Positions 555 to 64,000 of a stretch of DNA of 64,000 bases are shown here, one piece after another (within the stretch, counting starts at the first letter, position 1; every line of letters starts with the position of its first letter). Origin of the DNA: an uncultured Candidatus Saccharibacteria bacterium (GTDB taxonomy: Bacteria > Patescibacteriota > Minisyncoccia > Minisyncoccales > MHMH01). The notes under the pieces were generated by a model, which searched no databases, had not been told where the DNA came from, and worked only from the letters and a program-made list of their open reading frames with translations. The stretch lies in NCBI GenBank assembly GCA_964482335.1, contig CAYZXA010000001.1, forward strand, positions 24,983 through 88,982, read 5' to 3'. Both the position numbers and the translations under genes were made by a program.

Positions 555-1193
555 ATGAAAATTACTATTGTTTATGACAATACTGTTTTCAAAGAAGGCC
601 TGAAGGCCGATTGGGGCTTTGCTGCGTTGGTTGAACAGAAAGATACTCCTAAGATTTTATTTGATACTGGGGCTAATGGAGGAATTTTGCTTGGCAATAT
701 GGAAAAACTGGGAGTTAAGCCCATATCAATTGATGAAGTTTTTATTTCCCATCCTCATTTTGATCATACTGGAGGACTTTCTGAATTTTTGAAGGTAAAT
801 AAGAAAGCTAAAATTTACGTTCCATCCTCTCTTCATGGAATAAAAGATAGAGAAGTTGTTGTGGTAGAAAAAGCTACCAAAATTCATGAAAATGTATTTT
901 CTACTGGAGAGCTGGAAGGAATAGAACAAAGTATGGGGGTCGAAACCGAAAAAGGTATTGTTTTAATTGTTGGTTGCTCTCATCCGTATATGGGTCATAT
1001 TTTGGATGCAATTAAACAGTTCGGTAAGCTCTACGCAATTATCGGTGGAATGCACGGTTTCAGTGAATTTGAATTATTTCGAGATTTAGAATTAATTTGT
1101 CCTACTCACTGTACCCAGCATAAAGCAGAGCTTAAAAAACTCTATCCTCAAAAATACATTGAAGGAGGAGCAGGAAAGATAATTGAGATATAA
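555..1193 (+). CDS. MBL-fold metallo-hydrolase
   Basis: HPHFDHTGG metal-binding motif, 212 aa. Confidence 0.75.
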   Translation: MKITIVYDNTVFKEGLKADWGFAALVEQKDTPKILFDTGANGGILLGNMEKLGVKPISIDEVFISHPHFDHTGGLSEFLKVNKKAKIYVPSSLHGIKDREVVVVEKATKIHENVFSTGELEGIEQSMGVETEKGIVLIVGCSHPYMGHILDAIKQFGKLYAIIGGMHGFSEFELFRDLELICPTHCTQHKAELKKLYPQKYIEGGAGKIIEI

Positions 1194-1199
1194 TTAAAA

Positions 1200-1739
1200 A
1201 TGGAAAACAATATAGAAAATTGCATAGGGGGGGTTTTAAAAAGAATTGGTATTAAGAAAGACCAGGTTGTTTTAGATTTTGGATGTGGAGAAGGGGACTA
1301 TACTATTCCTGTTGCAAAGATAATCGGAAATAAAGGAAAAGTGTATGCTGTAGATAAAGATGAACATAAATTAAAACAGTTAATAGAGAGAGCTAAATCA
1401 GTTGGTCTTCAGAACATAAAGTCAAGAAAGACCTCTGGGGAATTAAAGTTTGGATTTGAAGGTGACAGTTTTGATGTGGTTTTGCTCTATGATATTTTTT
1501 GGTATTTTTCATTGCAAACTTCCGAGTTATCGAAACTATTGAAAGAGGTTTATAGAATTTCAAAACCAGGGGCTTTAATTTCGGTTTTTCCTGAACATGT
1601 TGATATAGAAAGACTCAAACAAGAAATAGAGAGATTTGGTTTTCGTCTCGAAAACAGATTTCGAGGAGAAGTTGTCCATGAAAATAAATTAGTAAAGGGT
1701 CAAATATTAAATTTTAGAAAAAAGGAAAATGAGAGCTGA
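1200..1739 (+). CDS. class I SAM-dependent methyltransferase
   Basis: VLDFGCGEGDYT motif I, 179 aa. Confidence 0.6.
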   Translation: MENNIENCIGGVLKRIGIKKDQVVLDFGCGEGDYTIPVAKIIGNKGKVYAVDKDEHKLKQLIERAKSVGLQNIKSRKTSGELKFGFEGDSFDVVLLYDIFWYFSLQTSELSKLLKEVYRISKPGALISVFPEHVDIERLKQEIERFGFRLENRFRGEVVHENKLVKGQILNFRKKENES

Positions 1740-1811
1740 AAGTTTGAATCAACCGAGTTCTTTATTTGTAGGTTTGGCTTGGAGAATAATTTCTAATTTT
1801 AGTTTAAAAAT

Positions 1812-2405
1812 ATGGAAGATTTAGAAAAAATAGAAAAAGAGCTTGAAAAAATCAAAGAGGAGGTTATAAATTGTAAGAAGTGTTCGTTATATAAAGAAAG
1901 GCATTTGCCGGTTATCGGAGAGGGGAGCCACCAGGCAAAAATAATGTTTGTTGGGGAAGCACCGGGACTCAACGAAGCTCAGACTGGACGACCCTTCTGT
2001 GGGGCGGCCGGTAAAATTTTAGATGAGTTATTAGATTCTATAAAAATCAAAAGAGAAGAGATTTATATCACCAATATTTTAAAAGATAGACCGTCTGGAA
2101 ATCGTAACCCAAAGAAAGAAGAAATAGAGGCCTGCACTCCTTATTTAGAAAGACAAATTGAAATCATTAAACCCGAAGTAATTTGTACCCTAGGAAATTA
2201 TTCAACTGCTTTTATTATGGAAAAACACGGATTAAAAAATCAAATCCAGGGTATTAGCAAAATCCACGGGAAAGTTTTTGAAGTAAAAAATCTTTTTCAA
2301 AAAATGAAAATTATTCCTTTATATCATCCGGCCGTAGCCACTTACAATATAAATATGAAAGAAATTCTTAAAAAAGATTTTAAGATTTTAGAGAAATTTA
2401 AATGA
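1812..2405 (+). CDS. uracil-DNA glycosylase, family 4
   Basis: FVGEAPGLNEAQTGRPFCGAAGKILDELL matches the family-4 UDG motif GE(A/G)PG..E...G.PF.G.AG. Confidence 0.8.
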   Translation: MEDLEKIEKELEKIKEEVINCKKCSLYKERHLPVIGEGSHQAKIMFVGEAPGLNEAQTGRPFCGAAGKILDELLDSIKIKREEIYITNILKDRPSGNRNPKKEEIEACTPYLERQIEIIKPEVICTLGNYSTAFIMEKHGLKNQIQGISKIHGKVFEVKNLFQKMKIIPLYHPAVATYNINMKEILKKDFKILEKFK

Positions 2406-2845
2406 ACTCTTTAGAGAAATATTGGGGAAAAAGGAAATTTAAGAAAACTTCTGAGCCAAAGGGAAAAGTTTTGAAAACTGAAAAGCAAAGATTTGTAGTC
2501 CAGGAACACTGGGCAAGCCATCATCATTTTGATTTCAGATTAGAAATGGAAGAAGTTTTAAAATCTTCGGCAGTGCCAAAGGGAGTACCAAAGAAAACAG
2601 GAATGAGAAGATTGGCAATGCAAACCGAAGACCATCCCATAGATTATATTAATTTTGAAGGAAAGATTCCCGAAGGTCTATATGGCGCAGGGAAGGTTAA
2701 AATTTTTGATAAAGGAAAATATGAGTTAATTGAAAATAATAAAAATAGAATTATTTTTAAGCTAAAAGGAAAAAAACTAAAAGGAATTTATAATTTAATA
2801 AAATTTAAAAAACCTAATCAATGGTTATTATTTAAAACTAAATAA
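2402..2845 (+). CDS. DNA ligase D 3'-phosphoesterase (PE) domain protein, standalone
   Basis: RFVVQEHWASHHHFDFRLE...AVPKGVP...EDHPIDYINFEGKIPEGLYGAGKV matches the LigD-PE signature; start overlaps the UDG stop. Confidence 0.75.
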   Translation: MNSLEKYWGKRKFKKTSEPKGKVLKTEKQRFVVQEHWASHHHFDFRLEMEEVLKSSAVPKGVPKKTGMRRLAMQTEDHPIDYINFEGKIPEGLYGAGKVKIFDKGKYELIENNKNRIIFKLKGKKLKGIYNLIKFKKPNQWLLFKTK

Positions 2846-2859
2846 AATTCACCCTGTGT

Positions 2860-3549
2860 ATGGAAAATATAATTTTAAAAGTAAGAAATTTAAATGTTGA
2901 ATTGGCTGGAGAAAAGATCATTGAGAATTTAAACTTCGAAGTTAAGAAAAAGGAAACTTTAGTCATTTTAGGCCCAAACGGAGCGGGCAAGACTGTTTTA
3001 TTTAGGACTTTATTAGGCTTTCTGCCTTTTAAAGGAGAAATCCAATGGCAGCCAGAATTAAAAATTAGCTATGTTCCCACCGGACTTGCTTCGACCAAAG
3101 AGATTCCATTAACTATAAAAGAGTTTTTTGATTTAAAAGAAGTTACTCAAAAAGAAGCTATTAAAGTTTTAGAGACAGTTGGAATGACAAGTTCTAATAT
3201 TTTAGAAAAAAGAGTGGCTTTTCTTTCCTCAGGTCAATTTCAGCGACTTTTGGTGGCTTGGGGTCTGACCGGTAATCCTCAGGTTTTACTTTTTGATGAA
3301 CCCACGGCTGGAATTGATATTAAGGGTCAAGAATCTATTTATTTACTTTTAAATAAACTAAGAGATAAAAGAAAACTCACCATTTTATTAATTACACACG
3401 ATTTAAGTATTGTTTATAAACTTGCCGATTATGTTATTTGTTTAAATAAAAAGGCTTTATGTCAAGGTCCCGTCTTAGAAGTTTTAACTCCTCAACACCT
3501 GTCTCAACTTTATGGAGGGGAAATAAAGTTTTATCAACATAAACATTAA
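2860..3549 (+). CDS. metal (Zn/Mn-type) ABC transporter ATP-binding protein
   Basis: Walker A GPNGAGKT, ABC signature LSSGQFQR, Walker B LLFDEP; ZnuC-like length. Confidence 0.8.
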   Translation: MENIILKVRNLNVELAGEKIIENLNFEVKKKETLVILGPNGAGKTVLFRTLLGFLPFKGEIQWQPELKISYVPTGLASTKEIPLTIKEFFDLKEVTQKEAIKVLETVGMTSSNILEKRVAFLSSGQFQRLLVAWGLTGNPQVLLFDEPTAGIDIKGQESIYLLLNKLRDKRKLTILLITHDLSIVYKLADYVICLNKKALCQGPVLEVLTPQHLSQLYGGEIKFYQHKH

Positions 3550-3552
3550 TTA

Positions 3553-4320
3553 ATGGAAACTCAATTTATACTTAGTTTATTGGTGGGAATTTTTATTGGA
3601 GGGGCGGCGGGATATTTAGGATCCTTGATGGTTTCTAAGAGAATGGCTTTGGTGGGGGGAGCTTTGGGGCATTTAACCTTACCAGGAATTGCTTTGGCTC
3701 TCATTTATGGTTTTGATGTTTCTTTAGGAGCTTTACCTTTAGTAGTTTTGGGAATAATTTTGATATGGTTATTTGAAATTAGAACTAAATTACCAATGGA
3801 GGCCTTAACTGCCGTGGTTTTTGCTTTGGGAGTGGCCGTTGCCTTTTTGATTTTACCTTCAGAGAAAACTGTTACTGCTTTAATTGGTGATATTTCTCAA
3901 GTAGAGCTTTATGGGGCTATAATTTCTATAATTTTAGCTATAACTGTTTTTTTTGTAATTCGCAGAATTTTTTCAAAAATGGTTCTTTCCGGTATTTCTG
4001 AAGATTTAGCCAGAGTCCAGGGGGTAAATGTAAAAAAATATAATTTTATTTTTTTGATTTCAATTGCTGTCTTAGTTGCTTTAGGAGTGAAAATAGTTGG
4101 TGGTCTTTTAACTGCAGCACTCATCGCTATTCCCGCTTGTGCTGCTAGAAATGTTAGTCGAAATTTATTTCAATATTCCTACGGAGCATTGATTATTGGG
4201 GCAGTGAGCTGTATCTTTGGAATTTTACTTTCTAGATTGACTGGATTTTCAGTTGGTCCTTTGATTATTTTAACTGCTACTTTCTTTTTCTTAATCTCTT
4301 TAATATGGCAAAAAAAATAG
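3553..4320 (+). CDS. metal ABC transporter permease (ZnuB-like)
   Basis: 255 aa polytopic membrane protein immediately after the ATPase. Confidence 0.75.
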   Translation: METQFILSLLVGIFIGGAAGYLGSLMVSKRMALVGGALGHLTLPGIALALIYGFDVSLGALPLVVLGIILIWLFEIRTKLPMEALTAVVFALGVAVAFLILPSEKTVTALIGDISQVELYGAIISIILAITVFFVIRRIFSKMVLSGISEDLARVQGVNVKKYNFIFLISIAVLVALGVKIVGGLLTAALIAIPACAARNVSRNLFQYSYGALIIGAVSCIFGILLSRLTGFSVGPLIILTATFFFLISLIWQKK

Positions 4321-5159
4321 TAATTGCATCGGGAAAGGGCGGAGTAGGGAAGTCAATGTTGACTTCGGCTTTGGCAATGCTTTTTACCAAAACCAAAAAG
4401 ATAGTGGCGGTGGATTGTGATGCTGACGCTCCGAACTTGGCAATTTGGCTAGGCGGAGTTAAAAAGTGGGATAAAATTTTACCAGTTTCTACTTTAGCTA
4501 AACCAGAAATTGATTATAAAAAATGTAATAGCTGTGGTTTATGTGTTAAGAATTGTCGTTTTGATGCTTTAAAAATGGTAAATGGCAAACCAAAGCTGAA
4601 CCCATTTTTATGTGAAGGTTGTGGAGCTTGTGAAGCAATTTGTCCTCAAAAAGCAATAAAATTAAAGCCAGTTCAGAATGGTGAGATCAAAGTTAAAAAA
4701 ACCAAATATGGTTTTCCTTTAGTCTCCGGAAACCTTCATCCAGGAGAAACAGGCTCTGGCAAGGTAGTCAGCGAAATTAAAAGAGAAGCAGAGAAATTCA
4801 AACATAATCTGATGATCATTGATTCAGCGCCAGGTACTGGTTGTCCAGTAATTGCCTCTTTGCAGGGAGCTGATTTTGCTATTTTAATTACTGAGCCTAC
4901 TCCCTCGGGATTTTCTGACTTAAAAAGAGTTTTAAAAGTAGTCAATCATTTTAATATTCCCTGGGGTCTAGTAATAAATAAATGGGATATTAATTCTCAA
5001 TTAAGCGGTAAAATGAAGAGATGGACCAAAAAGAAATTTTTGGGTAAAATATCTTATGATAAAGAAATATTTAAAGCTATCTCTAATTTAACTCCAATAA
5101 TAGAAACTGACTTAAAAGTTAAAGACGAGATTGAAAAGATTTTTAAAAAATTATGGTAA
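4305..5159 (+). CDS. MinD/ParA-family P-loop ATPase with inserted 2x[4Fe-4S] ferredoxin domain
   Basis: ASGKGGVGKS deviant Walker A; two CxxCxxCxxxCP motifs (CNSCGLCVKNC, CEGCGACEAICP). Confidence 0.8.
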   Translation: MAKKIVIASGKGGVGKSMLTSALAMLFTKTKKIVAVDCDADAPNLAIWLGGVKKWDKILPVSTLAKPEIDYKKCNSCGLCVKNCRFDALKMVNGKPKLNPFLCEGCGACEAICPQKAIKLKPVQNGEIKVKKTKYGFPLVSGNLHPGETGSGKVVSEIKREAEKFKHNLMIIDSAPGTGCPVIASLQGADFAILITEPTPSGFSDLKRVLKVVNHFNIPWGLVINKWDINSQLSGKMKRWTKKKFLGKISYDKEIFKAISNLTPIIETDLKVKDEIEKIFKKLW

Positions 5160-5440
5160 GACCAGTTAAACAAAGACGAGTTCAATTTGACCCGAGCATT
5201 ATTTATTTTAAGCCCAGGGCAGTACCCCTTTCCAAATTAAAAGAGGTGGCTTTAGCAGCAGATGAATTAGAAGCTGTTAGGCTTTGTGACTTAAAAGATT
5301 TAAATCAGATGGAGGCTGCTAAAAAAATGAATATTTCTCAAAGCACTTTTCAAAGAACTCTCGCCTCAGCTCATAAAAAAATAGCTCAAGCTTTAATAGA
5401 AGGTAAAGCAATAAAAATAAGAAAAATAAGTAAATTATGA
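5153..5440 (+). CDS. DUF134/UPF0251-family small DNA-binding protein
   Basis: MVRPVKQRRVQFDP... N-terminus and sigma-70 region-4-like HTH; common neighbour of MinD-Fd ATPases. Confidence 0.55.
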   Translation: MVRPVKQRRVQFDPSIIYFKPRAVPLSKLKEVALAADELEAVRLCDLKDLNQMEAAKKMNISQSTFQRTLASAHKKIAQALIEGKAIKIRKISKL

Positions 5441-6828
5441 AAAAGTGGATTCTTAGCATTTTTGTTTTAGGTTTGTTATTTTTTTCTTTTCAGAATGTTT
5501 TGGCTCAAGACAACTATTTTTGTGCGGCTTATTTTACTAAAATAGGCTGTCCGGTGTGTGCTGAGGCTGATCCTATTGTTTTAAGTCAGTTAACTGAGGA
5601 AAATCCAAATCTTATTATTATTGAATATGAATTTGTCTATCAGCCAGAGAATGTTCCAGTTATGACTGAATATTATTTAACTTATAACCTTCCTGGTTGG
5701 GTTCCTTTAATTCTTTTTGAAAATAAATATTCAGTTGGCATGTCAATTCCGGATGCCATAAGAGAAAAAATTGAAAAATCTGAATTCAATAAATGTTCTT
5801 TATCCGATGGCTCTGCCGTCAGTTTTAAAGATCTTAATTTTAATGAATTGCCAGGAAGTCCAAAAATTTGGGCCAATGGCAGAGTGCTCATAAAAACGAG
5901 CAAAGGAGCAGTAGCAAGTGAATTACTTAAAAAATCATTATTTAATGAAGATTTAAATAAAGTATTTGAAGGAATAGAGTTCAAAAAAATAGAACCAATC
6001 AGGGTTGCTATCTCCGAGGATTATATTGAGTTTGACAATGCCATTTCAATTGGGAATTGGATTTTTCAATGGAACGGACCTGAATTAGAAATTTTACCTT
6101 CAGAAGAAGGAACAACCACCACCACAGAAGAAACATCCTTAGTTGAACCCGAGCTAAAGCTTACTTTGGCTAAAATTTTATCTCTGGCCGCTGTAGATGC
6201 TATTAACCCCTGCGCCTTGGCTGTTTTAAGTTTGATGCTTATCGCCATCCTAACTTATAATCCTACCAAAAGAAGAAATGTTTTATTAGCTGGCCTAGCT
6301 TTTGTCTTCGCAGTTTTTCTACTTTATTTGATTTATGGATTAGTGATTATAAAATCATTTCAGCTTATCCAAGCCTTAACTTTTATTAGATTATGGCTTT
6401 ACAAAATTTTAGGAATTGGAGCTATTATTTTAGGATTTTTTAAACTAAAAGATTTTTTCTGGCACAAAGCTGTCTGCACAATTTCTCCAAGGGTTGATAA
6501 AATTATTGCTAAGGTAACTAGTTCTAAAGGAGCTTTTTTAGCAGGAGCTTTTGTAACCATATTTTTGCTTCCTTGCACAGTCGGGCCCTATATTATCTGT
6601 GGTGGAATCCTTTGTCCTTTGGGAATATTGAAATCCCTTCCTTGGCTGTTGCTTTACAATTTAATATTTATCTTGCCAATGCTGGCCGTTGTTTTGATAA
6701 TTTATTTAGGATTAGGAAAAATTGAAGATATTTCAAGTTGGCAGGCAAGGAATATAAAGTATTTACATTTAATTACCGGATTAACTGTGTTGGGATTAGG
6801 AATAGCCATGATTTTGGAATTAGTCTAA
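5437..6828 (+). CDS. thioredoxin-like / DsbD(CcdA)-family thiol:disulfide interchange membrane protein
   Basis: Signal peptide, CPVC redox motif, Thr-rich linker (EEGTTTTTEET), polytopic domain with AAVDAINPCAL motif typical of the CcdA/DsbD core. Confidence 0.65.
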   Translation: MKKWILSIFVLGLLFFSFQNVLAQDNYFCAAYFTKIGCPVCAEADPIVLSQLTEENPNLIIIEYEFVYQPENVPVMTEYYLTYNLPGWVPLILFENKYSVGMSIPDAIREKIEKSEFNKCSLSDGSAVSFKDLNFNELPGSPKIWANGRVLIKTSKGAVASELLKKSLFNEDLNKVFEGIEFKKIEPIRVAISEDYIEFDNAISIGNWIFQWNGPELEILPSEEGTTTTTEETSLVEPELKLTLAKILSLAAVDAINPCALAVLSLMLIAILTYNPTKRRNVLLAGLAFVFAVFLLYLIYGLVIIKSFQLIQALTFIRLWLYKILGIGAIILGFFKLKDFFWHKAVCTISPRVDKIIAKVTSSKGAFLAGAFVTIFLLPCTVGPYIICGGILCPLGILKSLPWLLLYNLIFILPMLAVVLIIYLGLGKIEDISSWQARNIKYLHLITGLTVLGLGIAMILELV

Positions 6829-6850
6829 AAATTTAAATTGGTAAATTAAT

Positions 6851-7126
6851 ATGGTTAAATTTTTAGGTATTTTAGATATATTGGCAGCTGGCCTTTTGGT
6901 TGGTGCAGCTTATAATCTGGCTATTCCAACTGGTTTAGTTATTGGTTTTGCAGTTTATCTTTTTCTGAAGGCTTTGCTGTTCTTGCTTGATATCGGCAGC
7001 TTTTTTGATGTTGTCGCTGGTATTTTGCTTATCTTAAGCTTGTCTCTGGCTTTGCCTCAGATATTGCTGTTTGTCTTTGCTGCTTTGGTTGGCTTCAAGG
7101 GTATTTTAAGCTTGTTTGCCTCTTGA
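6851..7126 (+). CDS. small hydrophobic membrane protein (hypothetical)
   Basis: 91 aa, three predicted TM segments. Confidence 0.4.
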   Translation: MVKFLGILDILAAGLLVGAAYNLAIPTGLVIGFAVYLFLKALLFLLDIGSFFDVVAGILLILSLSLALPQILLFVFAALVGFKGILSLFAS

Positions 7127-7218
7127 CTGGCCCTTATGCTTAAATTAAGGTAAAATAAGGGTGTGGAAAACTAAATTAAAGGTCGATTCTGAAAATTTGT
7201 AAATAAAATATTTTTACT

Positions 7219-7374
7219 ATGGAAGGTTATTGTGTTAAATGTAAAGCCAAAAGAGAAATACAAAACGCCAAAGAAGTAGCCATGAAGGGAAAGGGCGGAG
7301 TGAAAAGAAGGGCTATGACCGGCACCTGCCCAAAATGCGGCACCAAGATGTTCCGAATACTGGGCAAAGCCTAA
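7219..7374 (+). CDS. DUF5679-family small zinc-ribbon protein (not in supplied ORF track, 51 aa)
   Basis: MEGYCVKCKAKREIQNAKEVAMKGKGGVKRRAMTGTCPKCGTKMFRILGKA; two CxxC pairs; followed by a perfect 18-bp terminator. Confidence 0.55.
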   Translation: MEGYCVKCKAKREIQNAKEVAMKGKGGVKRRAMTGTCPKCGTKMFRILGKA

Positions 7375-7398
7375 TTCGAAGATTTCCGGAACTCTTTG

Positions 7399-7440
7399 AA
7401 ACTAAAATGAGTAAGGCTAGACCTTACTCATTTTAGTTTT
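7399..7440 (+). terminator. Rho-independent terminator (18-bp perfect stem, U-rich tail)
   Basis: AAACTAAAATGAGTAAGG-ctaga-CCTTACTCATTTTAGTTT then TAGGTTT. Confidence 0.55.
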
Positions 7441-7471
7441 AGGTTTAGCTTAATTTGGGTATAATAGTTTA

Positions 7472-8326
7472 ATGAAGAAAGCTTTTGTTGTTTTAGTAAT
7501 TTTGTTTGGTTTGAATATTTTAGCTTGGGTAGCAGTTTATGACTTAAGTCAATCTCAGTTGTTGGAGGTTGTTTTTTTTGATGTGGGGCAAGGGGACAGC
7601 ATTTTTATTGCAACTCCTCAAGGACACCAAATTCTAATTGATGGGGGACCAGATGAAACGGTTTTAGAAAATTTGGGCAAAGAGATGCCGTTCTGGGACA
7701 GAACCATTGATCTGATTATTCTTAGTCATCCCGAGCACGATCATATAAGTGGTTTGATCGAGGTGTTAAAGAGATATAAGGTAGAGAATATCTTATGGAC
7801 TGGAGTTTTAAGAGATACTTCTGAATACAGGCAATGGCAGGAATTAATAAAAGAAGAAAGAGCTCGAATAACAATAGCTCGAGCCGGCCAGCAGATTCAA
7901 GGCTCGGGGTCAAATCTTAAGCGCTGGGCTATAGAGGTTTTATTTCCTTTTGAAAGTCTTGAAGGCAAGGAAGTTAAAAATACCAACAATACTTCTGTTG
8001 TTGTTCGTTTGGTCTACGGCGACAACTCCTTTTTATTTACCGGCGATGCTTATAAATCAATAGAAAGACAGCTTTTGGAAACAGCGATTGATGCTGATGT
8101 CCTAAAGGTCGGGCATCATGGCAGTAAGACTTCAAGTGCTCAAGAATTCATTGAGAAAGTTTCTCCAGACATTGCTGTTATTCAATGTGGCAAAGATAAT
8201 CATTATGGGCATCCTTCTCAGGAAACTTTGGAGATTTTAGAAAAATATGGTATAAATATCTTTAGAACCGACTTAGATGGTGATATTAAAATATTATGCA
8301 ATTCCCAGTCTTTAATACTAAAGTAA
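7472..8326 (+). CDS. ComEC/Rec2-related MBL-fold domain protein (secreted or membrane-anchored)
   Basis: N-terminal signal/TM; FFDVGQGDSIFI and HPEHDH motifs of the ComEC beta-lactamase-like domain; -10 TATAAT at 7460-7465 only 6 nt upstream of the ATG (leaderless-like). Confidence 0.7.
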   Translation: MKKAFVVLVILFGLNILAWVAVYDLSQSQLLEVVFFDVGQGDSIFIATPQGHQILIDGGPDETVLENLGKEMPFWDRTIDLIILSHPEHDHISGLIEVLKRYKVENILWTGVLRDTSEYRQWQELIKEERARITIARAGQQIQGSGSNLKRWAIEVLFPFESLEGKEVKNTNNTSVVVRLVYGDNSFLFTGDAYKSIERQLLETAIDADVLKVGHHGSKTSSAQEFIEKVSPDIAVIQCGKDNHYGHPSQETLEILEKYGINIFRTDLDGDIKILCNSQSLILK

Positions 8327-29324: not shown

Positions 29325-29353
29325 TTGACAAAGCTGAGAAGGCATGCTATAAT
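29325..29353 (+). promoter_or_regulatory. consensus sigma-70 promoter TTGACA-N17-TATAAT
   Basis: Perfect -35 and -10 hexamers with a 17-nt spacer. Confidence 0.6.
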
Positions 29354-29459
29354 ACAGACGTAGAGAGGGTCAATAACTTTTCTATATTATAATTTCACAG
29401 ACGGCTCTCTCTTCGAGAGTCGTTTGTTAGTTTAAAAAAAATAATAAGGGGGTGCTGAG

Positions 29460-29549
29460 ATGGCATATACTGTCATAAGTGGAGTGTTCTTCCCGCTTCG
29501 AAATAGGGAAGACCTAGAAGAAGCTATCGCCTGCAAGAATGAAAAGTAG
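29460..29549 (+). CDS. possible 29-aa uORF or leader peptide
   Basis: SD AAGGGGGTG 5 nt upstream; MAYTVISGVFFPLRNREDLEEAIACKNEK. Confidence 0.2.
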   Translation: MAYTVISGVFFPLRNREDLEEAIACKNEK

Positions 29550-29559
29550 GCGAGAGCAA

Positions 29560-29603
29560 GGAGGATTTATTAAATATTATGTTAAATCCAATATAAATCC
29601 TCC
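29560..29603 (+). promoter_or_regulatory. 11-bp hairpin sequestering an SD (GGAGGATTTAT...ATAAATCCTCC) and enclosing a 5-codon mini-ORF (MLNPI)
   Basis: Perfect inverted repeat; ATG 29579 inside the loop. Confidence 0.4.
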
Positions 29604-29710
29604 GATCTCTCAAGTTCAAGATATCCATCGTGAATTTGAGAGTTGGGAAATGAACATTGAAAAATACGAATTTCGTGCCGCTCATATAAAATAGAAAGGA
29701 GGTAAGTCTA

Positions 29711-30064
29711 ATGAAAACTAGTAAGATTCTTGAAAGACTATTAGAAAGTGAACCTGGCGCTGTGGTAGTTGAGGAATGTTCCAAAAAGTTTATTCTATGG
29801 ACTCTTTCAAATTCTTTCCGGAAGGAGAGAATTCTTAAAGAGCTTAGGACAAACTTTCCTAGTTTAGAAAAACAGGATTTACTATTAAAACTAGGAACTT
29901 ATCCATTATTATCCACGGCTAATAAGTTTGTTGCAAATGCTAGATACAATTCTTCATCTTCTTCCATTCGGCAGCTTTTCTTGCTGCCCTTAGTGAAAAA
30001 GAAGATTCCTCGACCAAGACGTCTTCTAGTGCGGCAGTCAAAGAGGAGGGTGATTACAACGTAA
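29711..30064 (+). CDS. hypothetical 117-aa protein with Arg/Lys-rich C-terminus
   Basis: Strong SD AAAGGAGGT 7 nt upstream; a 13-bp hairpin spans the stop codon. Confidence 0.5.
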   Translation: MKTSKILERLLESEPGAVVVEECSKKFILWTLSNSFRKERILKELRTNFPSLEKQDLLLKLGTYPLLSTANKFVANARYNSSSSSIRQLFLLPLVKKKIPRPRRLLVRQSKRRVITT

Positions 30065-30098
30065 TCTCCCTCCTCCATTTTAAACAGATGAGGTTAGA

Positions 30099-30154
30099 GG
30101 TGCTTTCCGCTTTTCGAGGCTCTCTCGAAGCGGAGGGCACCTTTGGCCTTTTTT
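30099..30154 (+). terminator. Rho-independent terminator
   Basis: GGTGCTTTCCGC...GCGGAGGGCACC imperfect stem followed by TTTGGCCTTTTTT. Confidence 0.5.
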
Positions 30155-38547: not shown

Positions 38548-38576
38548 TTGACAAATTAAAATCAATTTGCTAAGAT
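38548..38576 (+). promoter_or_regulatory. promoter TTGACA-N17-TAAGAT
   Basis: Perfect -35, 17-nt spacer. Confidence 0.45.
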
Positions 38577-38644
38577 AACCTAGACAAAAAATGTCTTTAG
38601 CCTGATTTAGTTAGTACATAAAAAACAAAAAAGGAGGCGTCAAA

Positions 38645-38872
38645 TTGGCAGAGGTTGAGTTAACAAAAGCAGCTGGAGAGCTCCCAAACGGCTTACTTGC
38701 TCCCTTTATGGAAGGATTGTTAAAAATAGGGCAGTATAATTTTGAACTTATTAAACATTATGCCAATTGCCTGGCAGATATCCTAGAGAGAGCAGGGGTG
38801 AGCGAAGAACAGATAAGCGCCATAGAAGAACAATATCGTAACGAGAAGAAAGAAAAACAAGCAAAAGATTAA
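38645..38872 (+). CDS. hypothetical 75-aa protein (TTG start)
   Basis: SD AAAAAGGAGG with 7-nt spacing. Confidence 0.5.
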   Translation: MAEVELTKAAGELPNGLLAPFMEGLLKIGQYNFELIKHYANCLADILERAGVSEEQISAIEEQYRNEKKEKQAKD

Positions 38873-38885
38873 AGGAGGTGCCAAC

Positions 38886-39410
38886 ATGGCAACAGCTCAA
38901 CCAAAGATTGGTTTGTTTGCTGGAATATTTAACACAGAGGGGAAACTACTGATTAAAAGAAGGCCGAAAGGTATTTCTTTGGCTGGCGAATGGGATCTGC
39001 CCGGTGGTGCAGTTGAGGAAAAAAACAATCAGAATGCGCTTGATGAACGAATCGTTGGTCAAGAACTTGCCAGAGAAGTAAAAGAAGAAGTAGGACTTGC
39101 TATACCTGAATTTCTTCCGATGCCAGCTATGTATCCAACAGTGCTCAGAGGCGGTGGCGATTGGGCTTTTGCGATCCTTGTTGGGGTTGTTGAAGAAAGT
39201 CCGAGCAAAGGAGAAACGAGGTATATTTCTCCTCAAGAGCTTCAAGAACTGGCCGAAGGACCGGAAGGAAATAGGTTGGTTAGCGGTTGGGGAAAGCGCA
39301 TGTGTCGGCTTTGTCTTCGACTTTTTGCATCACGAGATGCTCCCAATCAGGATTACGCAAAACAGGCAGGAGAGATGCTTGCCAAGATTCAGTCGAGTTG
39401 GAGCAATTAG
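38886..39410 (+). CDS. NUDIX hydrolase
   Basis: Nudix box GQELAREVKEEVGL (REUxEExGU); SD AAAGGAGG. Confidence 0.8.
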   Translation: MATAQPKIGLFAGIFNTEGKLLIKRRPKGISLAGEWDLPGGAVEEKNNQNALDERIVGQELAREVKEEVGLAIPEFLPMPAMYPTVLRGGGDWAFAILVGVVEESPSKGETRYISPQELQELAEGPEGNRLVSGWGKRMCRLCLRLFASRDAPNQDYAKQAGEMLAKIQSSWSN

Positions 39411-39415
39411 TTTTT

Positions 39416-39458
39416 AAGGCGTTTCGTCAAGGCAATTTGACGAACGCCTTTTATATTT
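39416..39458 (+). terminator. Rho-independent terminator after the NUDIX gene
   Basis: AAGGCGTTTCGTCAA-ggcaa-TTGACGAACGCCTT followed by TTATATTT. Confidence 0.55.
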
Positions 39459-39487
39459 CAAATGATGGAGGCCGGGCCTCGATCAGG

Positions 39488-48779: not shown

Positions 48780-49065
48780 CAGCGCCGTGGAGGAGTAGTA
48801 CCTCACCAGTCTCATAAATTTTTGTGACCTAAAATGGTAACATTTTATGGAAAAATTCCCGAAATTGCTGGGAACCCGTAAAAATATTTTATGGCAATCA
48901 GCAGCCAAGCTTCGACATTTTGTCGGAGAAGGTTCAGAGACTATAATGGGAACACCCTTTTATTTAAGGGAGATGGGATAGTCCGTTCCATTTGGAAACA
49001 AATGGCTAACACTAAAGAAGCTGGGGGCCCCCGTGCAATTCGGGGCGGCGCAACAAAGATTCTAT
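48780..49065 (+). ncRNA. candidate structured non-coding RNA or long 5' leader (unclassified)
   Basis: Several local hairpins (CGACAtttTGTCG; CCATTTGgaaaCAAATGG; GCCCCGtgcaattCGGGGC) and a GC-rich block atypical of this genome; the only ORF (48891..49094) has no SD and odd composition. Confidence 0.3.
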
Positions 49066-49121: not shown

Positions 49122-49832
49122 ATGGCTAGAATTATAGAAAAAAATAAAGCGCTAAGACTGCGCCAAAAAGGGAAAAGTATAAATGAAATTGCTAGAAGAT
49201 TAAAATTACCAAAAAGCACTGTTAGTGTTTGGTGTCGTGATATTAAACTTACTTCGGAACAGATCGGAAGATTAGCAAAAAGACAAAAATCTGGAAGTTA
49301 TAAAGGAAGAATGAAATTTTTAGAAAGAGTAAGAAAAAAAAGAATGGAAGAGATGATAAGATTGAGAAAGGAAGGAATTCAAGAGATTGGTAAGATAAAA
49401 AAAAGAGATTTATTTGTTGCTGGAATTGCAATGTATTGGAGCGAAGGAGTGACTTCTTCAAATAGCGATGAAGTAAGTTTTTCTAATTCAGACCCCAAAA
49501 TGCTTCTTTTGATGTTGAGATGGTTTAAAGAGATTTGTGGCGTATTAGATAACCAATTTGTTATTCAAATCAGAATCAATAAAATACATAAACAGAGAAT
49601 AAAAGAGATTGAAAATTATTGGTCTAATATAACAAAGATTTCATTAAGCCAATTTACTAAAACGATTTTAATAAAAAGTAAATTGAAGAAGATTTATCCT
49701 AAGACCGACGCTTATTACGGTACTCTAAGAATAAAAATTCGACGCGGTACTCAATTAAGAAGAAAGATTAATGGTTGGATTGAAGGATTGGCTAGGCGGG
49801 GTAGCTCAGTTGGTAGAGCAAAGGACTCATAA
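49122..49832 (+). CDS. HTH-domain protein (hypothetical); the 3' end overlaps tRNA-Met by 38 nt
   Basis: N-terminal helix-turn-helix (KSINEIARRLKLPKSTVSVW); the stop TAA coincides with the tRNA anticodon loop. Confidence 0.4.
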   Translation: MARIIEKNKALRLRQKGKSINEIARRLKLPKSTVSVWCRDIKLTSEQIGRLAKRQKSGSYKGRMKFLERVRKKRMEEMIRLRKEGIQEIGKIKKRDLFVAGIAMYWSEGVTSSNSDEVSFSNSDPKMLLLMLRWFKEICGVLDNQFVIQIRINKIHKQRIKEIENYWSNITKISLSQFTKTILIKSKLKKIYPKTDAYYGTLRIKIRRGTQLRRKINGWIEGLARRGSSVGRAKDS

Positions 49833-49867
49833 GCCTTAGGTCGTGGGTTCAAGTCCCACCCTCGCCA
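49795..49867 (+). tRNA. tRNA-Met (anticodon CAT; elongator Met or Ile2 not distinguished)
   Basis: GGCGGGG-TA-GCTCAGTTGGTAGAGC...CTCATAA...GTGGGTTCAAGTCCCAC-CCTCGCC-A cloverleaf. Confidence 0.8.
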
Positions 49868-49892
49868 CATTAAAATTTTAATATTGAATTCT

Positions 49893-49969
49893 GGGGACGT
49901 AGCTCAATTGGTTAGAGCACATGCTTGTCGAGCATGGGGTTGCCGGTTCGAGTCCGGTCGTCCCCGCCA
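49893..49969 (+). tRNA. tRNA-Asp (anticodon GTC), CCA encoded
   Basis: GGGGACG...TTGTCGA anticodon loop...GGTTCGAGTCCGG...CGTCCCC-G-CCA. Confidence 0.85.
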
Positions 49970-50010
49970 AACGATTATTGATAAACGATAGAAAATAAAG
50001 GAGGTGAAAA

Positions 50011-50268
50011 ATGAGCGAAGATAGTGTTCTTTCACTAGAAGAAGCAGAAGAAATATGGGAGAAGCATTTAAGCATCGGTGAAAAGAGTGAAATGTTTCAG
50101 GAACTATTAAAGAAAGGTAAAATTTCTTTTATAGATTATGGACTAGGTGTTAACCGTCATTTCGAAAGACTTAGACACTTAACAAAATCATCAATTGCTA
50201 AAAAAATAGAGGAAAACGAGCCGTTGTCAGTTGCTTTCGCCCATTCTAAAATAAGAGAAACCACCTGA
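50011..50268 (+). CDS. hypothetical 85-aa protein
   Basis: SD AAAGGAGGTG 5 nt upstream. Confidence 0.5.
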   Translation: MSEDSVLSLEEAEEIWEKHLSIGEKSEMFQELLKKGKISFIDYGLGVNRHFERLRHLTKSSIAKKIEENEPLSVAFAHSKIRETT

Positions 50269-50289
50269 GTATTGCAAGGGTGGTTTTTT
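50261..50289 (+). terminator. Rho-independent terminator overlapping the stop codon
   Basis: CCACCTgagtattgcaAGGGTGG TTTTTT. Confidence 0.55.
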
Positions 50290-50419
50290 ATTGAAGATTG
50301 CCTTTTCTTTCGGAATATGGTAGATAAATCAGAGGAGGTGAATCAATATAGTTTTTTAACAAGAGAATAAACACTGTAACGCTCAACAAAATAAAAAAAG
50401 CCAAAAGAAGGAAAAGAAA

Positions 50420-51136
50420 ATGGAAAAACTGATTACTATACAGAAGAGTGTAATTCCTGCTTGTGATGTGGATACCTTGGGAAAATTGGGACAGGTAGCC
50501 GAGGCTACTTTTGGCCTATCAGGAATTGGTGCCTATAAAGTCGGATTAGAGCTTGCTCTTTCCTTCGGCTTAAAAGAGGTAGTTAAGATAATCAGGGAAC
50601 ATAGTAATTTCCCAGTTATCTATGACCACCAAAAAGCAGCTACTGACATTCCAGCCCTAGGAACAAAATTTGCTAAGGCAGTGAAAGGTGCCGGCGTAGA
50701 CGCTGTAATACTATTTCCCTTTGGAGGTGCTGCGACTGAGCGAGAGTGGATAAAAGTTTGTCGAGAAGAAGGTTTAGTGGTTTTAGTTGGCGGTCATATG
50801 ACCCAGCCGGAGTTTCTTGAGGCGGAAGGTGGCTTTATTGCTACTACAGGGCCAGAAAGAATGTATCAGATTGCTGCTGACAGTGGGGTGACCAATTTTG
50901 TTGTTCCGGGAAATAAGCCGGAATTTGTTCTAAAGTATCGTCAGCTACTAGAAAAAGAGTTGGGAGAGGACAAATTTACCCTCTATGCTCCTGGCTTCAT
51001 TACTCAGGGTGGTAGTATCTCGGAGGCCGGCCAGATGGCTGGAGACAATTGGCATGCAATTATCGGCAGTGCTATTTATAAAGCTGAGAATATGAGAAAA
51101 GCTGCTCAGCAGGTGACATTTCAGATTGTTAGCTAA
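50420..51136 (+). CDS. pyrF: orotidine-5'-phosphate decarboxylase family (PyrF-like; the related HPS/KGPDC branch not excluded)
   Basis: TIM-barrel OMPDC-family motifs (IPACDVDT, DHQKAATDIP, IIGSAIY); immediately upstream of pyrE. Confidence 0.65.
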   Translation: MEKLITIQKSVIPACDVDTLGKLGQVAEATFGLSGIGAYKVGLELALSFGLKEVVKIIREHSNFPVIYDHQKAATDIPALGTKFAKAVKGAGVDAVILFPFGGAATEREWIKVCREEGLVVLVGGHMTQPEFLEAEGGFIATTGPERMYQIAADSGVTNFVVPGNKPEFVLKYRQLLEKELGEDKFTLYAPGFITQGGSISEAGQMAGDNWHAIIGSAIYKAENMRKAAQQVTFQIVS

Positions 51137-51173
51137 TAGCCATGCCACCAAAAATCCAAGGAGGTAAAAAGAA

Positions 51174-51833
51174 ATGGTAACTAGAGAAGGACTAACCAAT
51201 TCGCAAAAACAGGTAGCTAACAGAATTTATGATCGGGAAGCAGTAAAGTTTGGAGCCTTCAAATTAAAACTTCATGAGAAGAATCCTGATGCCCCGCTTT
51301 CTCCCATCTATATTACTCTCCGGAAACCACCTGGCGGACCTTTGACCGATGTGGATGTTGAGATGATCGGGCAAGAACTTTACGCCCAGGTAAAAAAGCA
51401 AAAAGTCCTATTTGATGTAGTAGCTGGTATTCCTCGAGCTGGAGAACCATTTGCTGAAGTGGTCGCTCGATTGTCAAGAAGACCCACGCTCAAACTTAGC
51501 AAGAAGGAAGGAGGAGATAAACGAAAGATTGACTCAATTGTCAGTGGAGAATACCGACCTGGCCAGCTTGTCTTATTGGTTGATGATTTAATCACTCAGG
51601 CTGATACAAAGAAAGAGGCAATCGGGGTTTGTGAGAATGCCGAGTTAACAGTTGCCGGAGTAGTCGTCCTGGTAGATCGGGAACAAGGCGGATCAGAGGA
51701 CTTAGGGAATGCCGGTTACACCTTGCATACTGTTTTTCCTCTTTCAGCTCTTCTTGACTATTATGTTGAGGTTGGCAAGATTGATTCGGTAAAGTGTGAT
51801 GAGGTAATGGAATACATCACAGCTAACAGATAG
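51174..51833 (+). CDS. pyrE: orotate phosphoribosyltransferase
   Basis: Type I PRT motif LLVDDLITQADT; SD AAGGAGG. Confidence 0.8.
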   Translation: MVTREGLTNSQKQVANRIYDREAVKFGAFKLKLHEKNPDAPLSPIYITLRKPPGGPLTDVDVEMIGQELYAQVKKQKVLFDVVAGIPRAGEPFAEVVARLSRRPTLKLSKKEGGDKRKIDSIVSGEYRPGQLVLLVDDLITQADTKKEAIGVCENAELTVAGVVVLVDREQGGSEDLGNAGYTLHTVFPLSALLDYYVEVGKIDSVKCDEVMEYITANR

Positions 51834-51863
51834 GTCAGTGCTTTAAAGAGTTTAATATTAAGG

Positions 51864-51897
51864 TCGCTGGGACCAGTGCGTTCCAGCGATTTTTCTT
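51864..51897 (+). terminator. Rho-independent terminator
   Basis: TCGCTGGGAC-cagtgc-GTTCCAGCGA TTTTTCT. Confidence 0.55.
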
Positions 51898-51961
51898 GTG
51901 AAGTTATCCCCAGTTTTCAGCTTGATTTTAGGTTAATTTTAAGGTAAAATAAAGGAAGGAA

Positions 51962-58280: not shown

Positions 58281-58703
58281 ATGGCAAAAAAAGTTAAAGC
58301 TATTATTAAATTACAGATTCAAGCTGGCGGGGCAACGCCTGCTCCTCCAGTGGGGCCGGCTTTGGCTCAGCACGGTTTGAATATTGGCGAGTTTTGTCAA
58401 AAGTTCAACGATGCCACTAAACAGAACCAGGGATTTAAGATTCCAGTTGAAATTACGGTGTATGAAGACAGAACATATAATTTTAGATTAAAGCAGCCCC
58501 CAGCCGCTGAGCTTTTGAAAAAAGCAGCTGGCATTGAGAAGGGCTCTGGAGAACCTAACAAGACCAAGGTTGCTAAGATTTCCCGAGCCCAATTACGCCA
58601 GATTGCTGAAAAGAAGATGGAAGACTTGAACGCTGAAGACATTGAAAGCGCTATGAGGATCATTGAGGGCACAGCCCGTAATATGGGGATTGAAGTGCAG
58701 TAG
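58281..58703 (+). CDS. rplK: 50S ribosomal protein L11 (not followed by rplA)
   Basis: Conserved uL11. Confidence 0.95.
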
Positions 58704-58725
58704 CCTTTTGTTGGGGAAATTATAT

Positions 58726-59076
58726 ATGCCAATAATAATTGTTAAAGATTCAATAAAGCGAGAAGAATTGAAACGTGTTGCCAAAAAGCAGTTCGGTGAC
58801 TTAGTAAAGGCAGTGGTAGACATAGAACAGGGGATTATGGCAGTTGGTGGAGAACTTCACTCTGATGAGGAGGTCTTTCTTATGGAGCAAGAAAACTCAA
58901 AGCGAGAGTATACCTGGGGCATTAGTCTTTATCCTGAGAAAACGGGTGATGACTGGATTGAGCTTGATTCTGTGATTAACCTAAAACCTTCTTTTGGTAA
59001 TCGCTCTCGAGATGTGGATAATCCCATAGTTCGAGAAAAAATTAGAAAAATTGTAGAAAAACTCGTATCAAGATGA
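58726..59076 (+). CDS. DUF5674-family protein
   Basis: MPIIIVKDSIKREELKRVAKKQF...VGGELHSDEEVFLMEQENSKREYTWGISLYPEK...INLKPSFGNRSRDV matches the recalled DUF5674 consensus; start trimmed to ATG 58726. Confidence 0.55.
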   Translation: MPIIIVKDSIKREELKRVAKKQFGDLVKAVVDIEQGIMAVGGELHSDEEVFLMEQENSKREYTWGISLYPEKTGDDWIELDSVINLKPSFGNRSRDVDNPIVREKIRKIVEKLVSR

Positions 59077-59414
59077 ATAAACTTTATCACAAAGAATTGG
59101 CTGAAGGTAGATGGTTTCAGCTTTCTTTAGCAGAGCAATTGGCAAATATTGGTAGCGAGGTGAGTCGGGCACGCAAATGGCAGGGAAAAGACGAAAATAT
59201 TTTTTGGGGCGCAGTTGACAGAGCCCTTGAACTTTTTGATTTGACTCTTGCGGATCCTCGGTGGAGAAAGGGTCGTTTGCGGGAAATTGCAAGGGTACGA
59301 GAAATATTTTGCGATGCTCTTTTTGGAGGAAAGAATTATCAAAGTTCCCTTAAAGATCTTGAACGATATTTTCTGCTTTTTGCGTTTCTTGTTCGGCAAC
59401 GATTGCTAGTTTGA
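59073..59414 (+). CDS. hypothetical protein, start overlaps the DUF5674 stop (ATGA)
   Basis: 113 aa, alpha-helical, Arg/Trp-rich. Confidence 0.45.
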   Translation: MNKLYHKELAEGRWFQLSLAEQLANIGSEVSRARKWQGKDENIFWGAVDRALELFDLTLADPRWRKGRLREIARVREIFCDALFGGKNYQSSLKDLERYFLLFAFLVRQRLLV

Positions 59415-63927: not shown

Positions 63928-64000
63928 GAGTTATAATAAAAACAATCTCATTTAAGTTAAAAGGAGGTAAACTTATGAGTAACAAGGGTAATAGTTTCTC

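Follow-up and report, generated by a model that had tools for sequence, protein, structure and literature searches.

Positions 49970–51857 of the window, that is, of the whole 64,000-nucleotide (nt) stretch of DNA analyzed here (GenBank assembly GCA_964482335.1, contig CAYZXA010000001.1), probably represent one allele of an exchangeable pyrimidine cassette, which occupies a fixed hot spot in a Nealsonbacteria-like clade of Parcubacteria within the candidate phyla radiation (CPR). The window is a nearly unidirectional housekeeping stretch of a CPR bacterium, with the str, S10, spc, and alpha ribosomal operons and genes for aminoacyl-tRNA synthetases, gatCAB, mreB, and gyrB, and the closest named relatives of its proteins come from Candidatus Nealsonbacteria and other Parcubacteria. 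The gene order around the block is gatA, a gene for a hypothetical protein of 175 amino acids (aa), a split tRNA-fMet, an open reading frame (ORF) for a helix-turn-helix (HTH) protein, tRNA-Met, tRNA-Asp, a small 85-aa ORF (ORF85), pyrF, pyrE, pheS (from 51962), pheT, and gyrB; the features of this region located below lie on the forward strand. The hot spot would be bounded by the tRNA-fMet/tRNA-Met/tRNA-Asp cluster on one side and by the terminator and promoter ahead of pheS on the other, and loss or replacement of its alleles would proceed by homologous recombination between the conserved flanking sequences instead of by site-specific integration. The allele of the window would have been resident at least since the split from a related 13.6-kb contig (L100), which is 95.1% identical to the window, and the cassette genes would rely on canonical Shine-Dalgarno (SD) sites, unlike the surrounding core genes, which have no SD signal. 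A preliminary description of this DNA had already singled out a discrete block directly after tRNA-Met (elongator type, 49795–49868) and tRNA-Asp (49893–49969), and both tRNA genes (ARAGORN and Rfam) and the edges of the block, at the 3' end of tRNA-Asp on the left and at the terminator preceding pheS on the right, agree with it.

Variation at this site was surveyed in 80 metagenome loci centered on close PheS homologues, among which ∼43 Nealsonbacteria-like junctions between tRNA-Asp and pheS could be classified. The junction is empty (95–311 nt) in 10 loci scattered over the PheS tree, which supplies the vacant site that the preliminary description had proposed looking for in relatives, and it holds varying sets of pyr genes in ∼33 loci. 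Three non-orthologous types of orotidine 5'-monophosphate (OMP) decarboxylase are found at the junction, namely, the YDHQK type, the canonical type 1, and the long type 2, and the remaining cargo includes several types of phosphoribosyltransferase (PRTase), pyrD or a pyrD-pyrK fusion, two types of pyrC, pyrB, and prs. The order gatA, hypothetical gene, tRNA-Met, tRNA-Met, tRNA-Asp, pyr genes, pheS, pheT, and gyrB recurs in L007, L011, L094, and L096–L099, where synteny extends from frr, rseP, proS, mreB, and gatCA through the three tRNAs and the pyr genes to pheST, gyrB, secE, and nusG. The right flank (terminator hairpin, DnaA-box-like GTTATCC(A/C)CA, and pheS promoter) is conserved at both empty and filled sites. 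In the window, it comprises an intrinsic terminator (51860–51900; −19.8 kcal/mol, z −5.5), which is common to different alleles, followed at 51903–51950 by the DnaA-box-like GTTATCCCCA and by a promoter-like TTGATT-17-TAAAAT for pheS that was recovered by a promoter scan. The DnaA-box-like site (51903–51912 in the window) stands ∼50 nt upstream of pheS in nearly all relatives, including L102, L106, L114, L134, L133, L178, and L146, and GC skew indicated no origin near it.

Pairwise comparisons reveal abrupt changes of identity at the borders of the cassette. L096 and L098 are 99.98% identical over 5.5 kb to the last base of tRNA-Asp, beyond which identity is 83.6% in pyrB and the two loci differ in gene content, and this break places the left boundary of the cassette at the 3' end of tRNA-Asp. 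The flanks of an empty locus (L106) and of one with a 4.2-kb cassette (L112) are ∼91% identical. In L182, pheS is 93.4% identical to that of the window at the nucleotide level and 97.3% at the amino acid level, with a synonymous divergence (dS) of 0.24, compared with 0.10 between the window and L100; its cassette, however, consists of an ORF85 homologue, a 302-aa type-2 OMP decarboxylase, and a 248-aa PRTase, its tRNA-Met and tRNA-Asp are 74 and 87% identical to the window copies, and the two sequences become homologous again from the terminator near 51858 onward. It follows that replacement took in the entire cassette, and apparently the tRNA cluster as well, in the lineage of either the window and L100 or L182. 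Both the arrangement of the L182 type and that of the L096 type were met again in independent assemblies. Between the window and L100, dS is 0.19 for pyrF and 0.13 for pyrE, and 0.10–0.29 for ten flanking genes. A further breakpoint occurs between two empty loci, L102 and L114, which are 95–97% identical in gatA and the hypothetical gene and 78% identical from the tRNA cluster through pheS.

The empty junctions, the non-orthologous alleles, the breaks in L182 and L096/L098, and the SD/GC signature described below together make lateral replacement at the locus well supported by the contigs compared. No integrase stands among the annotated genes, and neither an integrase nor a recombinase was found when all ORFs of the block and its immediate flanks were scanned. 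The distal boundary contains no att-like repeat of the tRNA-Asp 3' end, the only repeats being SD motifs; given both absences, homologous recombination through the flanks would fit better than tRNA-targeted integration. The horizontal acquisition at a tRNA hot spot put forward in the preliminary description is thus retained as lateral replacement at a hot spot, while the tRNA-directed integration is not, for want of an integrase, an att repeat, and a foreign composition. Replacement-type flexible islands are known from capsule or O-antigen loci and from marine bacteria, where alleles are exchanged by homologous recombination in the flanks. The pyrimidine locus resembles them in its fixed site, conserved flanks, non-homologous alleles of one functional class, sharp breaks, empty alleles, and lack of mobility genes, but it differs in that the cargo belongs to core metabolism instead of surface structure, the host is a reduced CPR bacterium, and the genes are marked by SD sites in a genome otherwise devoid of them. 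With tRNA-associated integrative islands, it has in common the adjoining tRNAs, the presence/absence polymorphism, and signals unlike those of the core, but not an integrase, a duplicated tRNA 3' end, or a foreign composition at synonymous sites.

The second line of evidence is the distribution of SD sites, which were scored by their energy of pairing with the canonical anti-SD CACCUCCUUU, with −8 kcal/mol or lower regarded as strong, although the 16S gene lies outside the window and the loci retrieved, and the 3' end of the host's own 16S rRNA may differ from this sequence. A strong SD precedes 6 of the 83 window genes scored (7%), compared with 5% at random positions, and none of the ribosomal-protein, tuf, secY, rpoA, and gyrB genes among the 83 has one, so the core genes are as free of SD signal as had been described. 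Five of the six strong-SD genes fall in three islands that the preliminary description had delimited, the pyrimidine block and two others with the same signature (29325–30154 and 38548–39460), both of which are real; the SD-led genes of the islands are ORF85 and pyrE, the ORFs from 29460 and 29711, and a 75-aa ORF at 38645 with a NUDIX gene at 38886. A seventh SD, at 63962, stands ahead of an ORF that runs past the window end. ORF85 has a perfect 11-nt SD (AAAGGAGGTGA, 49997–50007; −16.0 kcal/mol against the canonical anti-SD), which is identical in L100 and corresponds to AAGGAGGTAAG at the equivalent place in L182, and pyrE has AAGGAGGT (51158–51165; −12.6 kcal/mol) with a spacer identical in L100. 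The strong SDs reported earlier for these two genes are therefore confirmed, but that of pyrF is not, being a weak GAAGGAA (50407–50413; −6.2 kcal/mol) and not AAAGGAGG. L100 has an intact AAAGGAGGAAAGG at this position, and on this comparison the pyrF SD of the window is therefore a recently weakened copy. The spacers between SD and start codon, counted from the end of the SD match, measure 3–8 nt.

The same contrast is found across the clade. In a census of 28 related loci, where each gene was scored by its best SD ahead of a start codon anywhere within the first 30 codons and starts outside the window were inferred by rule, strong SDs precede 73% of cassette starts (77 genes) and 5% of flanking starts (221 genes), with 5% at the internal control positions of both cassette and flanking genes. 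The signature first noticed in the window is therefore a genuine general property of the locus, the synonymous sites of the window allele being where it is weakest. In addition, hexamers resembling −10 boxes end 4–12 nt before the start codon in 8 of the 32 genes with an upstream spacer of at least 25 nt (background 4.5%); this excess, which bears out the earlier remark that some core genes begin a few nt from a −10 element, makes short-leader or leaderless transcripts plausible.

Base composition gives a weaker contrast in the window. The GC content of pyrF (44.5%) and pyrE (44.2%) exceeds that of the window (38.2%) and of rplD (36.2%), as described before, but that of ORF85 does not (34.9%, and 26.7% at third codon positions, GC3). 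GC3 amounts to 36.4% in pyrF and 36.8% in pyrE, compared with a mean of 34.2% over the window ORFs. The GC content expected from the residues and the codon usage of the window is already 43.1% for pyrF and 42.2% for pyrE, and their excess is therefore mostly due to amino acid composition. The codon-GC residuals are z +1.6 for pyrF and +1.9 for pyrE (standard deviation among genes, 1.7), and the tetranucleotide distance over the block peaks at z 1.6. Thus, the GC, codon usage, and tetranucleotide analyses that had been recommended as checks found native GC3, codon usage, and tetranucleotides, and GC content was rejected as proof of a foreign origin once amino acid composition had been corrected for. 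In the clade, however, cassette genes exceed their flanks by 0.059 in GC and by 0.066 in GC3, the latter in 23 of the 28 loci. Because synonymous sites are saturated between lineages, this persistent SD and GC3 contrast is not the unameliorated relic of one old transfer; its persistence needs either a continuing supply of genes exchanged from a pool that uses SDs and is richer in GC, or selection acting on the cassette genes. The compositional outliers of the window lie elsewhere, in the HTH ORF (codon-GC z −4.25) and at ∼1000–7500, where composition is most atypical (GC 30–34%, tetranucleotide z to 3.9, and codon-GC z −2 to −4) and the genes encode UDG, LigD_N, ABC transporter components, a ParA/4Fe-4S protein, DUF134, and an SfLAP-like membrane protein.

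Several points weigh against the exchange of cassettes by lateral replacement. The phylogeny of the clade is star-like and was built by neighbor joining only, which leaves tests of congruence with little power. The sequences used for comparison all come from metagenome contigs, in which a chimeric join could mimic a breakpoint. The replacement that separates the window and L100 from L182 is not polarized, and the recombinant lineage could be either. The promoters are consensus matches only, the function of the SDs is an assumption, and the synonymous sites of pyrF and pyrE are near native here, which leaves the "foreign" signal weaker than in relatives.

The most serious competing explanation, which carries appreciable though minority weight and is compatible with cassette exchange, is that the SD and GC signals reflect an expression class and not an origin, with pyr genes and a few other conditionally needed genes depending on SDs and having GC-richer codons owing to their mode of regulation, and core genes being leaderless or initiated independently of SDs at A/U-rich sites. 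It accords with the occurrence of pyrF SDs at orthologous positions in the window and L100, L007, L008, L009, and L011 despite ∼30% protein divergence, with the contrast of 73% versus 5%, with the −10 boxes that abut some core starts, and with an orphan SD conserved at the 5' end of the pyrF leader. However, other metabolic genes of the window (dcd, thyA, tpi, adk, and murA) lack SDs, most of the remaining genes with an SD are ORFans, a raised GC3 does not accompany every SD-led gene, and no regulator and no known RNA element were found in the leader. An explanation by purely vertical descent, in which an ancestral full pyr operon was eroded lineage by lineage without exchange and the window kept pyrF and pyrE, is unlikely. 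Reductive evolution is typical of CPR bacteria and counts in its favor, as does the fact that an occupied site nearly always holds pyr genes, with pyrB, pyrD, or pyrC retained there in relatives. The divergence of PyrF and PyrE is also near that of the flanking housekeeping proteins (identities of 62–81% compared with 66–82% for PheS, PheT, GatA, and GyrB in more distant genomes with the same gene types, L007, L011, L110, L124, L160, and L094). A syntenic locus with congruent phylogenies had been named at the outset as evidence against horizontal acquisition, and the locus is indeed syntenic, with PyrF and PyrE tracking PheS, GatA, and GyrB, yet vertical descent is hard to reconcile with three non-orthologous PyrF types and several PRTase types at one site, with identity drops in L182 and L098 that are sharp and confined to the cassette, or with an SD and GC3 contrast that persists where synonymous sites are saturated and is thus not a simple relic. 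A classical genomic island, that is, a GC-richer segment from an SD-using, non-CPR donor recently integrated at tRNA-Asp, is very improbable, for although the block adjoins tRNAs, contrasts with the core in SD and GC, and faces empty junctions in relatives, it has no integrase or att repeat, it is native in GC3, codon usage, and tetranucleotides, all of the nearest relatives of PyrF and PyrE come from CPR bacteria, with CPR PyrF forming one clade, dS from L100 equals that of the flanks, and pyr genes stand at this locus in ∼33 relatives.

The enzymes encoded by the exchangeable cassette could be assigned with differing precision. The pyrF product (50420–51136; 238 aa) matches Pfam PF00215 at 56.4 bits (cut-off 27) but scores 70.5 against the NCBIfam equivalog models, far below the cut-off of 208, and therefore represents a divergent subtype. 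Its AlphaFold2 model (mean pLDDT, the predicted local distance difference test, 90.3) is an eight-stranded (beta/alpha)8 barrel, and the top 50 Foldseek matches are all OMP decarboxylases, among them those of M. thermautotrophicus and P. horikoshii, at template modeling (TM) scores of 0.77–0.88; the best structural matches are archaeal enzymes (TM 0.79–0.88, identity 27–30%). The canonical DxKxxD spacing on strand beta3 is replaced by D69-H-Q-K72-x-x-x-D76 (YDHQKxxTDIP) in all 18 aligned members, and the HMMER alignment to the M. thermautotrophicus enzyme (MtOMPDC) needs a gap of two residues. D16 on beta1, K40 on beta2, and the phosphate-binding Q196 are invariant, with K40 and Q196 aligning with K42 and Q185 of MtOMPDC in the HMMER region, and D16 is presumably the equivalent of MtOMPDC D20. 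Ser217, in the motif IIGSAIY, aligns with Arg203, which results in a Gly-Ser in place of the Gly-Arg phosphate gripper. The short archaeal OMP decarboxylase of M. thermautotrophicus and the window enzyme share the (beta/alpha)8 fold, the setting in a pyr operon, and apparently also the beta1 Asp, the beta2 Lys, and the phosphate-binding Gln, but differ in overall sequence (26–30% identity), in YDHQKxxTDIP versus DxKxxD, and in the gripper. On these sequence and model data, PyrF is very likely to act as an OMP decarboxylase, and it defines a subtype with an altered catalytic motif that was found here only in CPR bacteria and DPANN archaea.

A pattern scan with one genome per species recovered 559 loci encoding the YDHQK subtype, of which the best 80 are, judged by their record titles, mostly from CPR bacteria and DPANN archaea, nine with other NCBI labels being contradicted by gene order; in ∼60 loci, most of these best 80, pyrF adjoins pyrE, pyrB, pyrC, or pyrD. 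Neighbor joining placed the CPR sequences in one clade and the DPANN sequences in another, with a mean identity between clades of 51% and identities of only 26–28% to the M. thermautotrophicus outgroup, of which the HMMER alignment shows residues 38–217. This topology would indicate an old connection between CPR and DPANN PyrF and not a recent transfer. The pyrE product (51174–51833; 219 aa), orotate phosphoribosyltransferase, matches PF00156 (34.5, cut-off 26.3) and contains the phosphoribosyl pyrophosphate-binding motif LVLLVDDLITQADT, and it did not reach the cut-offs of the NCBIfam equivalog models. All 17 of its PDB matches at E ≤ 0.01 are named orotate phosphoribosyltransferase (OPRT), uridine/orotidine 5'-monophosphate (UMP/OMP) synthase, or phosphoribosyltransferase, the best being the OPRT domain of human UMP synthase (2.5e-21), and its nearest relatives are CPR proteins with up to 81% identity. 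The ratio of nonsynonymous to synonymous divergence (dN/dS) from L100 is 0.16 for pyrF and 0.22 for pyrE, values by which both enzymes are judged to be under purifying selection. The PyrE encoded by L094 (JGI Ga0307377_10000016, 292 kb) is named Candidatus Humimicrobiaceae in NCBI; the contig has Nealsonbacteria-type, and hence CPR, synteny over 16 kb, the label (of protein P0180) is probably wrong, and a transfer outside the CPR was rejected for it. Several metagenome-assembled genomes in third-party annotation records labeled "uncultured Gammaproteobacteria" or "Methanosarcinales" look similarly unreliable.

Together, PyrE and PyrF would convert orotate to OMP and then to UMP, which suggests a role in orotate salvage. 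No pyrB, pyrC, or pyrD was found in the 64-kb window or the 10 kb downstream, so the search for these genes that had been proposed for the whole genome came out negative for the ∼74 kb covered, and tblastn for relics of the three in ORF85, the spacers, and the rest of the 64 kb gave nothing below E = 0.1. Relatives keep pyrB, pyrC, or pyrD at the tRNA-Asp/pheS site. A pyrF-pyrE pair without the rest of the pathway had been regarded as unusual for CPR bacteria, a view not supported by the 13 of 23 CPR loci examined (the window included) that have no other pyr gene nearby. The genes dcd and thyA lie 8–9 kb downstream of the block. The capacity for pyrimidine synthesis in CPR bacteria appears to be strain-variable and exchangeable, being swapped or lost at one fixed hot spot, which bears on how far CPR episymbionts depend on their hosts for nucleotides.

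The block seems to comprise two expression units, each with its own terminator as previously described, a strong hairpin and U-run following both ORF85 and pyrE. The first unit would probably follow the tRNAs and carry ORF85 (50011–50268) to the intrinsic terminator at 50255–50291 (−16.4 kcal/mol, z −4.5, then U6). ORF85 belongs to a rare family, for which a search of 1.84 billion cluster representatives yielded no more than two homologues, both distant, and it has no Pfam, NCBIfam, PHROG, or PADLOC match, and its dN/dS from L100 (0.64) indicates weak constraint. One homologue, P0372 in L182, is 40% identical and occupies the equivalent position ahead of a different pyrF type, and ORF85 is therefore probably a real small cassette-linked protein. 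The pyrF-pyrE unit appears to start at a promoter-like site of its own, TTGCCT-17-TAGATA with an upstream TG (50298–50326), which was read from the sequence as a consensus match and is conserved in L100 and L182, and to end at the terminator that belongs to the conserved flank. Its leader is unstructured (z +0.8) with an A-rich tail, and its predicted 5' end opens with the orphan SD AGAGGAGGTGAA (50331–50342), which has no usable start codon and is kept in L100 and L182 although the leader overall is 73–82% identical. The SD (window 50331–50357; L100 ∼3145; L182 550–575) is followed by ATA-TAG, ACG-TAG, and ATG-TAG (start-stop) in the window, L100, and L182, respectively, with a T-run coming next. 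The reading frames differ among the three loci, and a conserved upstream ORF starting from this SD was therefore rejected. A PyrR site, a riboswitch, and an attenuator were likewise rejected for the leader, which is unstructured and has no Rfam match at E ≤ 10. The STAB-SD of Bacillus cryIIIA is a 5'-terminal, SD-like stabilizer of mRNA. By analogy, one may guess that the orphan SD acts as a 5' stabilizer or as a start-stop element; it resembles STAB-SDs and start-stop mini-ORFs in its place at the predicted 5' end, in the lack of a usable ORF, and in the ATG-TAG of L182, but differs in having ATA here and ACG in L100 as the start codon.

The SD contrast extends beyond the cassette to small units elsewhere. 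Mini-units occur at 29325–30154, 38548–39460, and 63962 onward (L093 11485–11673), and at L093 11868–12053 and 19645–19866, with promoter-like sites of their own, perfect SDs, and strong terminators, and they encode ORFans of 29–117 aa and one NUDIX hydrolase. PADLOC and PHROGs made no assignment for the SD-led ORFs beyond generic NUDIX matches, and an origin of these ORFs in defense systems or phages was rejected. It is conceivable, if on balance doubtful, that the core genome has abandoned SD initiation entirely and that an exchanged pool (the pyr cassettes and probably the ORFan/NUDIX mini-islands) keeps SDs of 8–11 nt. If true, the SD would mark the flexible genome in this Parcubacteria clade, which lacks uL1, and either two mechanistically distinct initiation regimes would coexist within one cell or genes moving from host to host would keep their SDs as portable signals for expression; a 16S rRNA without anti-SD, if that is the case, would make the SDs purely a signature of import. 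The contrast of 73% versus 5% offers a natural system in which to ask how CPR ribosomes start translation and to test whether SD sites mark imported genes. The ribosomes concerned are reduced and without uL1 at the usual place: behind rplK, where rplA would usually stand, the window has a DUF5674 gene and a 113-aa ORF (58281–59414). An anti-SD motif is reported to have been detected in just 48% of Parcubacteria 16S genes, and the Parcubacteria without uL1 overlap with those lineages in which no anti-SD is reported (PMC9297842). The window resembles SD-poor bacteria such as Bacteroidetes and the Parcubacteria without anti-SD in its core genes without SD enrichment and in the absence of uL1 after rplK, but differs in that an exchangeable gene set keeps full canonical SDs, a dichotomy that the available portion of that paper does not mention (PMC9297842).

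The tRNA cluster at the left of the hot spot is itself variable. The first tRNA gene, that of the initiator tRNA-fMet, consists of exon 1 (48783–48815, ending with the anticodon CAT; parsed manually, and found as an intron-containing tRNA-Met by ARAGORN with -i), a group I intron of 202 nt that interrupts the anticodon loop (48816–49017; Rfam RF00028 at 48803–49005, 91.8 bits, full model), and exon 2 (49018–49053), which is 100% conserved in L100. Standard ARAGORN missed the split gene. The spliced product is 69 nt long and folds as a tRNA-Met(CAT) with a C1:A72 mismatch. Orthologues in L007 and L011 are intronless, and the intron is also present in L100, L096, L136, L115, and L143; group I introns in tRNA genes of CPR genomes have been mentioned in passing (PMC8172020). 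The AT-rich HTH ORF (49122–49832; Pfam HTH_7) belongs to a family of ∼227-aa proteins with 447 CPR homologues at 62–82% identity, and in the window, it has lost its stop codon and reads through for 38 nt into tRNA-Met. Where the first tRNA-Met is intact and intronless, no HTH ORF was detected. A recognizable LAGLIDADG or other nuclease was rejected for this ORF, since Pfam and PDB sequence searches matched nothing but the HTH and Foldseek gave no match at E < 0.001; a nuclease is suggested solely by the order in which its secondary-structure elements are arranged. It is located directly 3' of the split tRNA-fMet in five of the six distinct intron-bearing loci examined and is possibly an intron-associated, free-standing endonuclease or maturase. 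In L096, an ORF with a LAGLIDADG_3 domain lies between tRNA-Met and tRNA-Asp.

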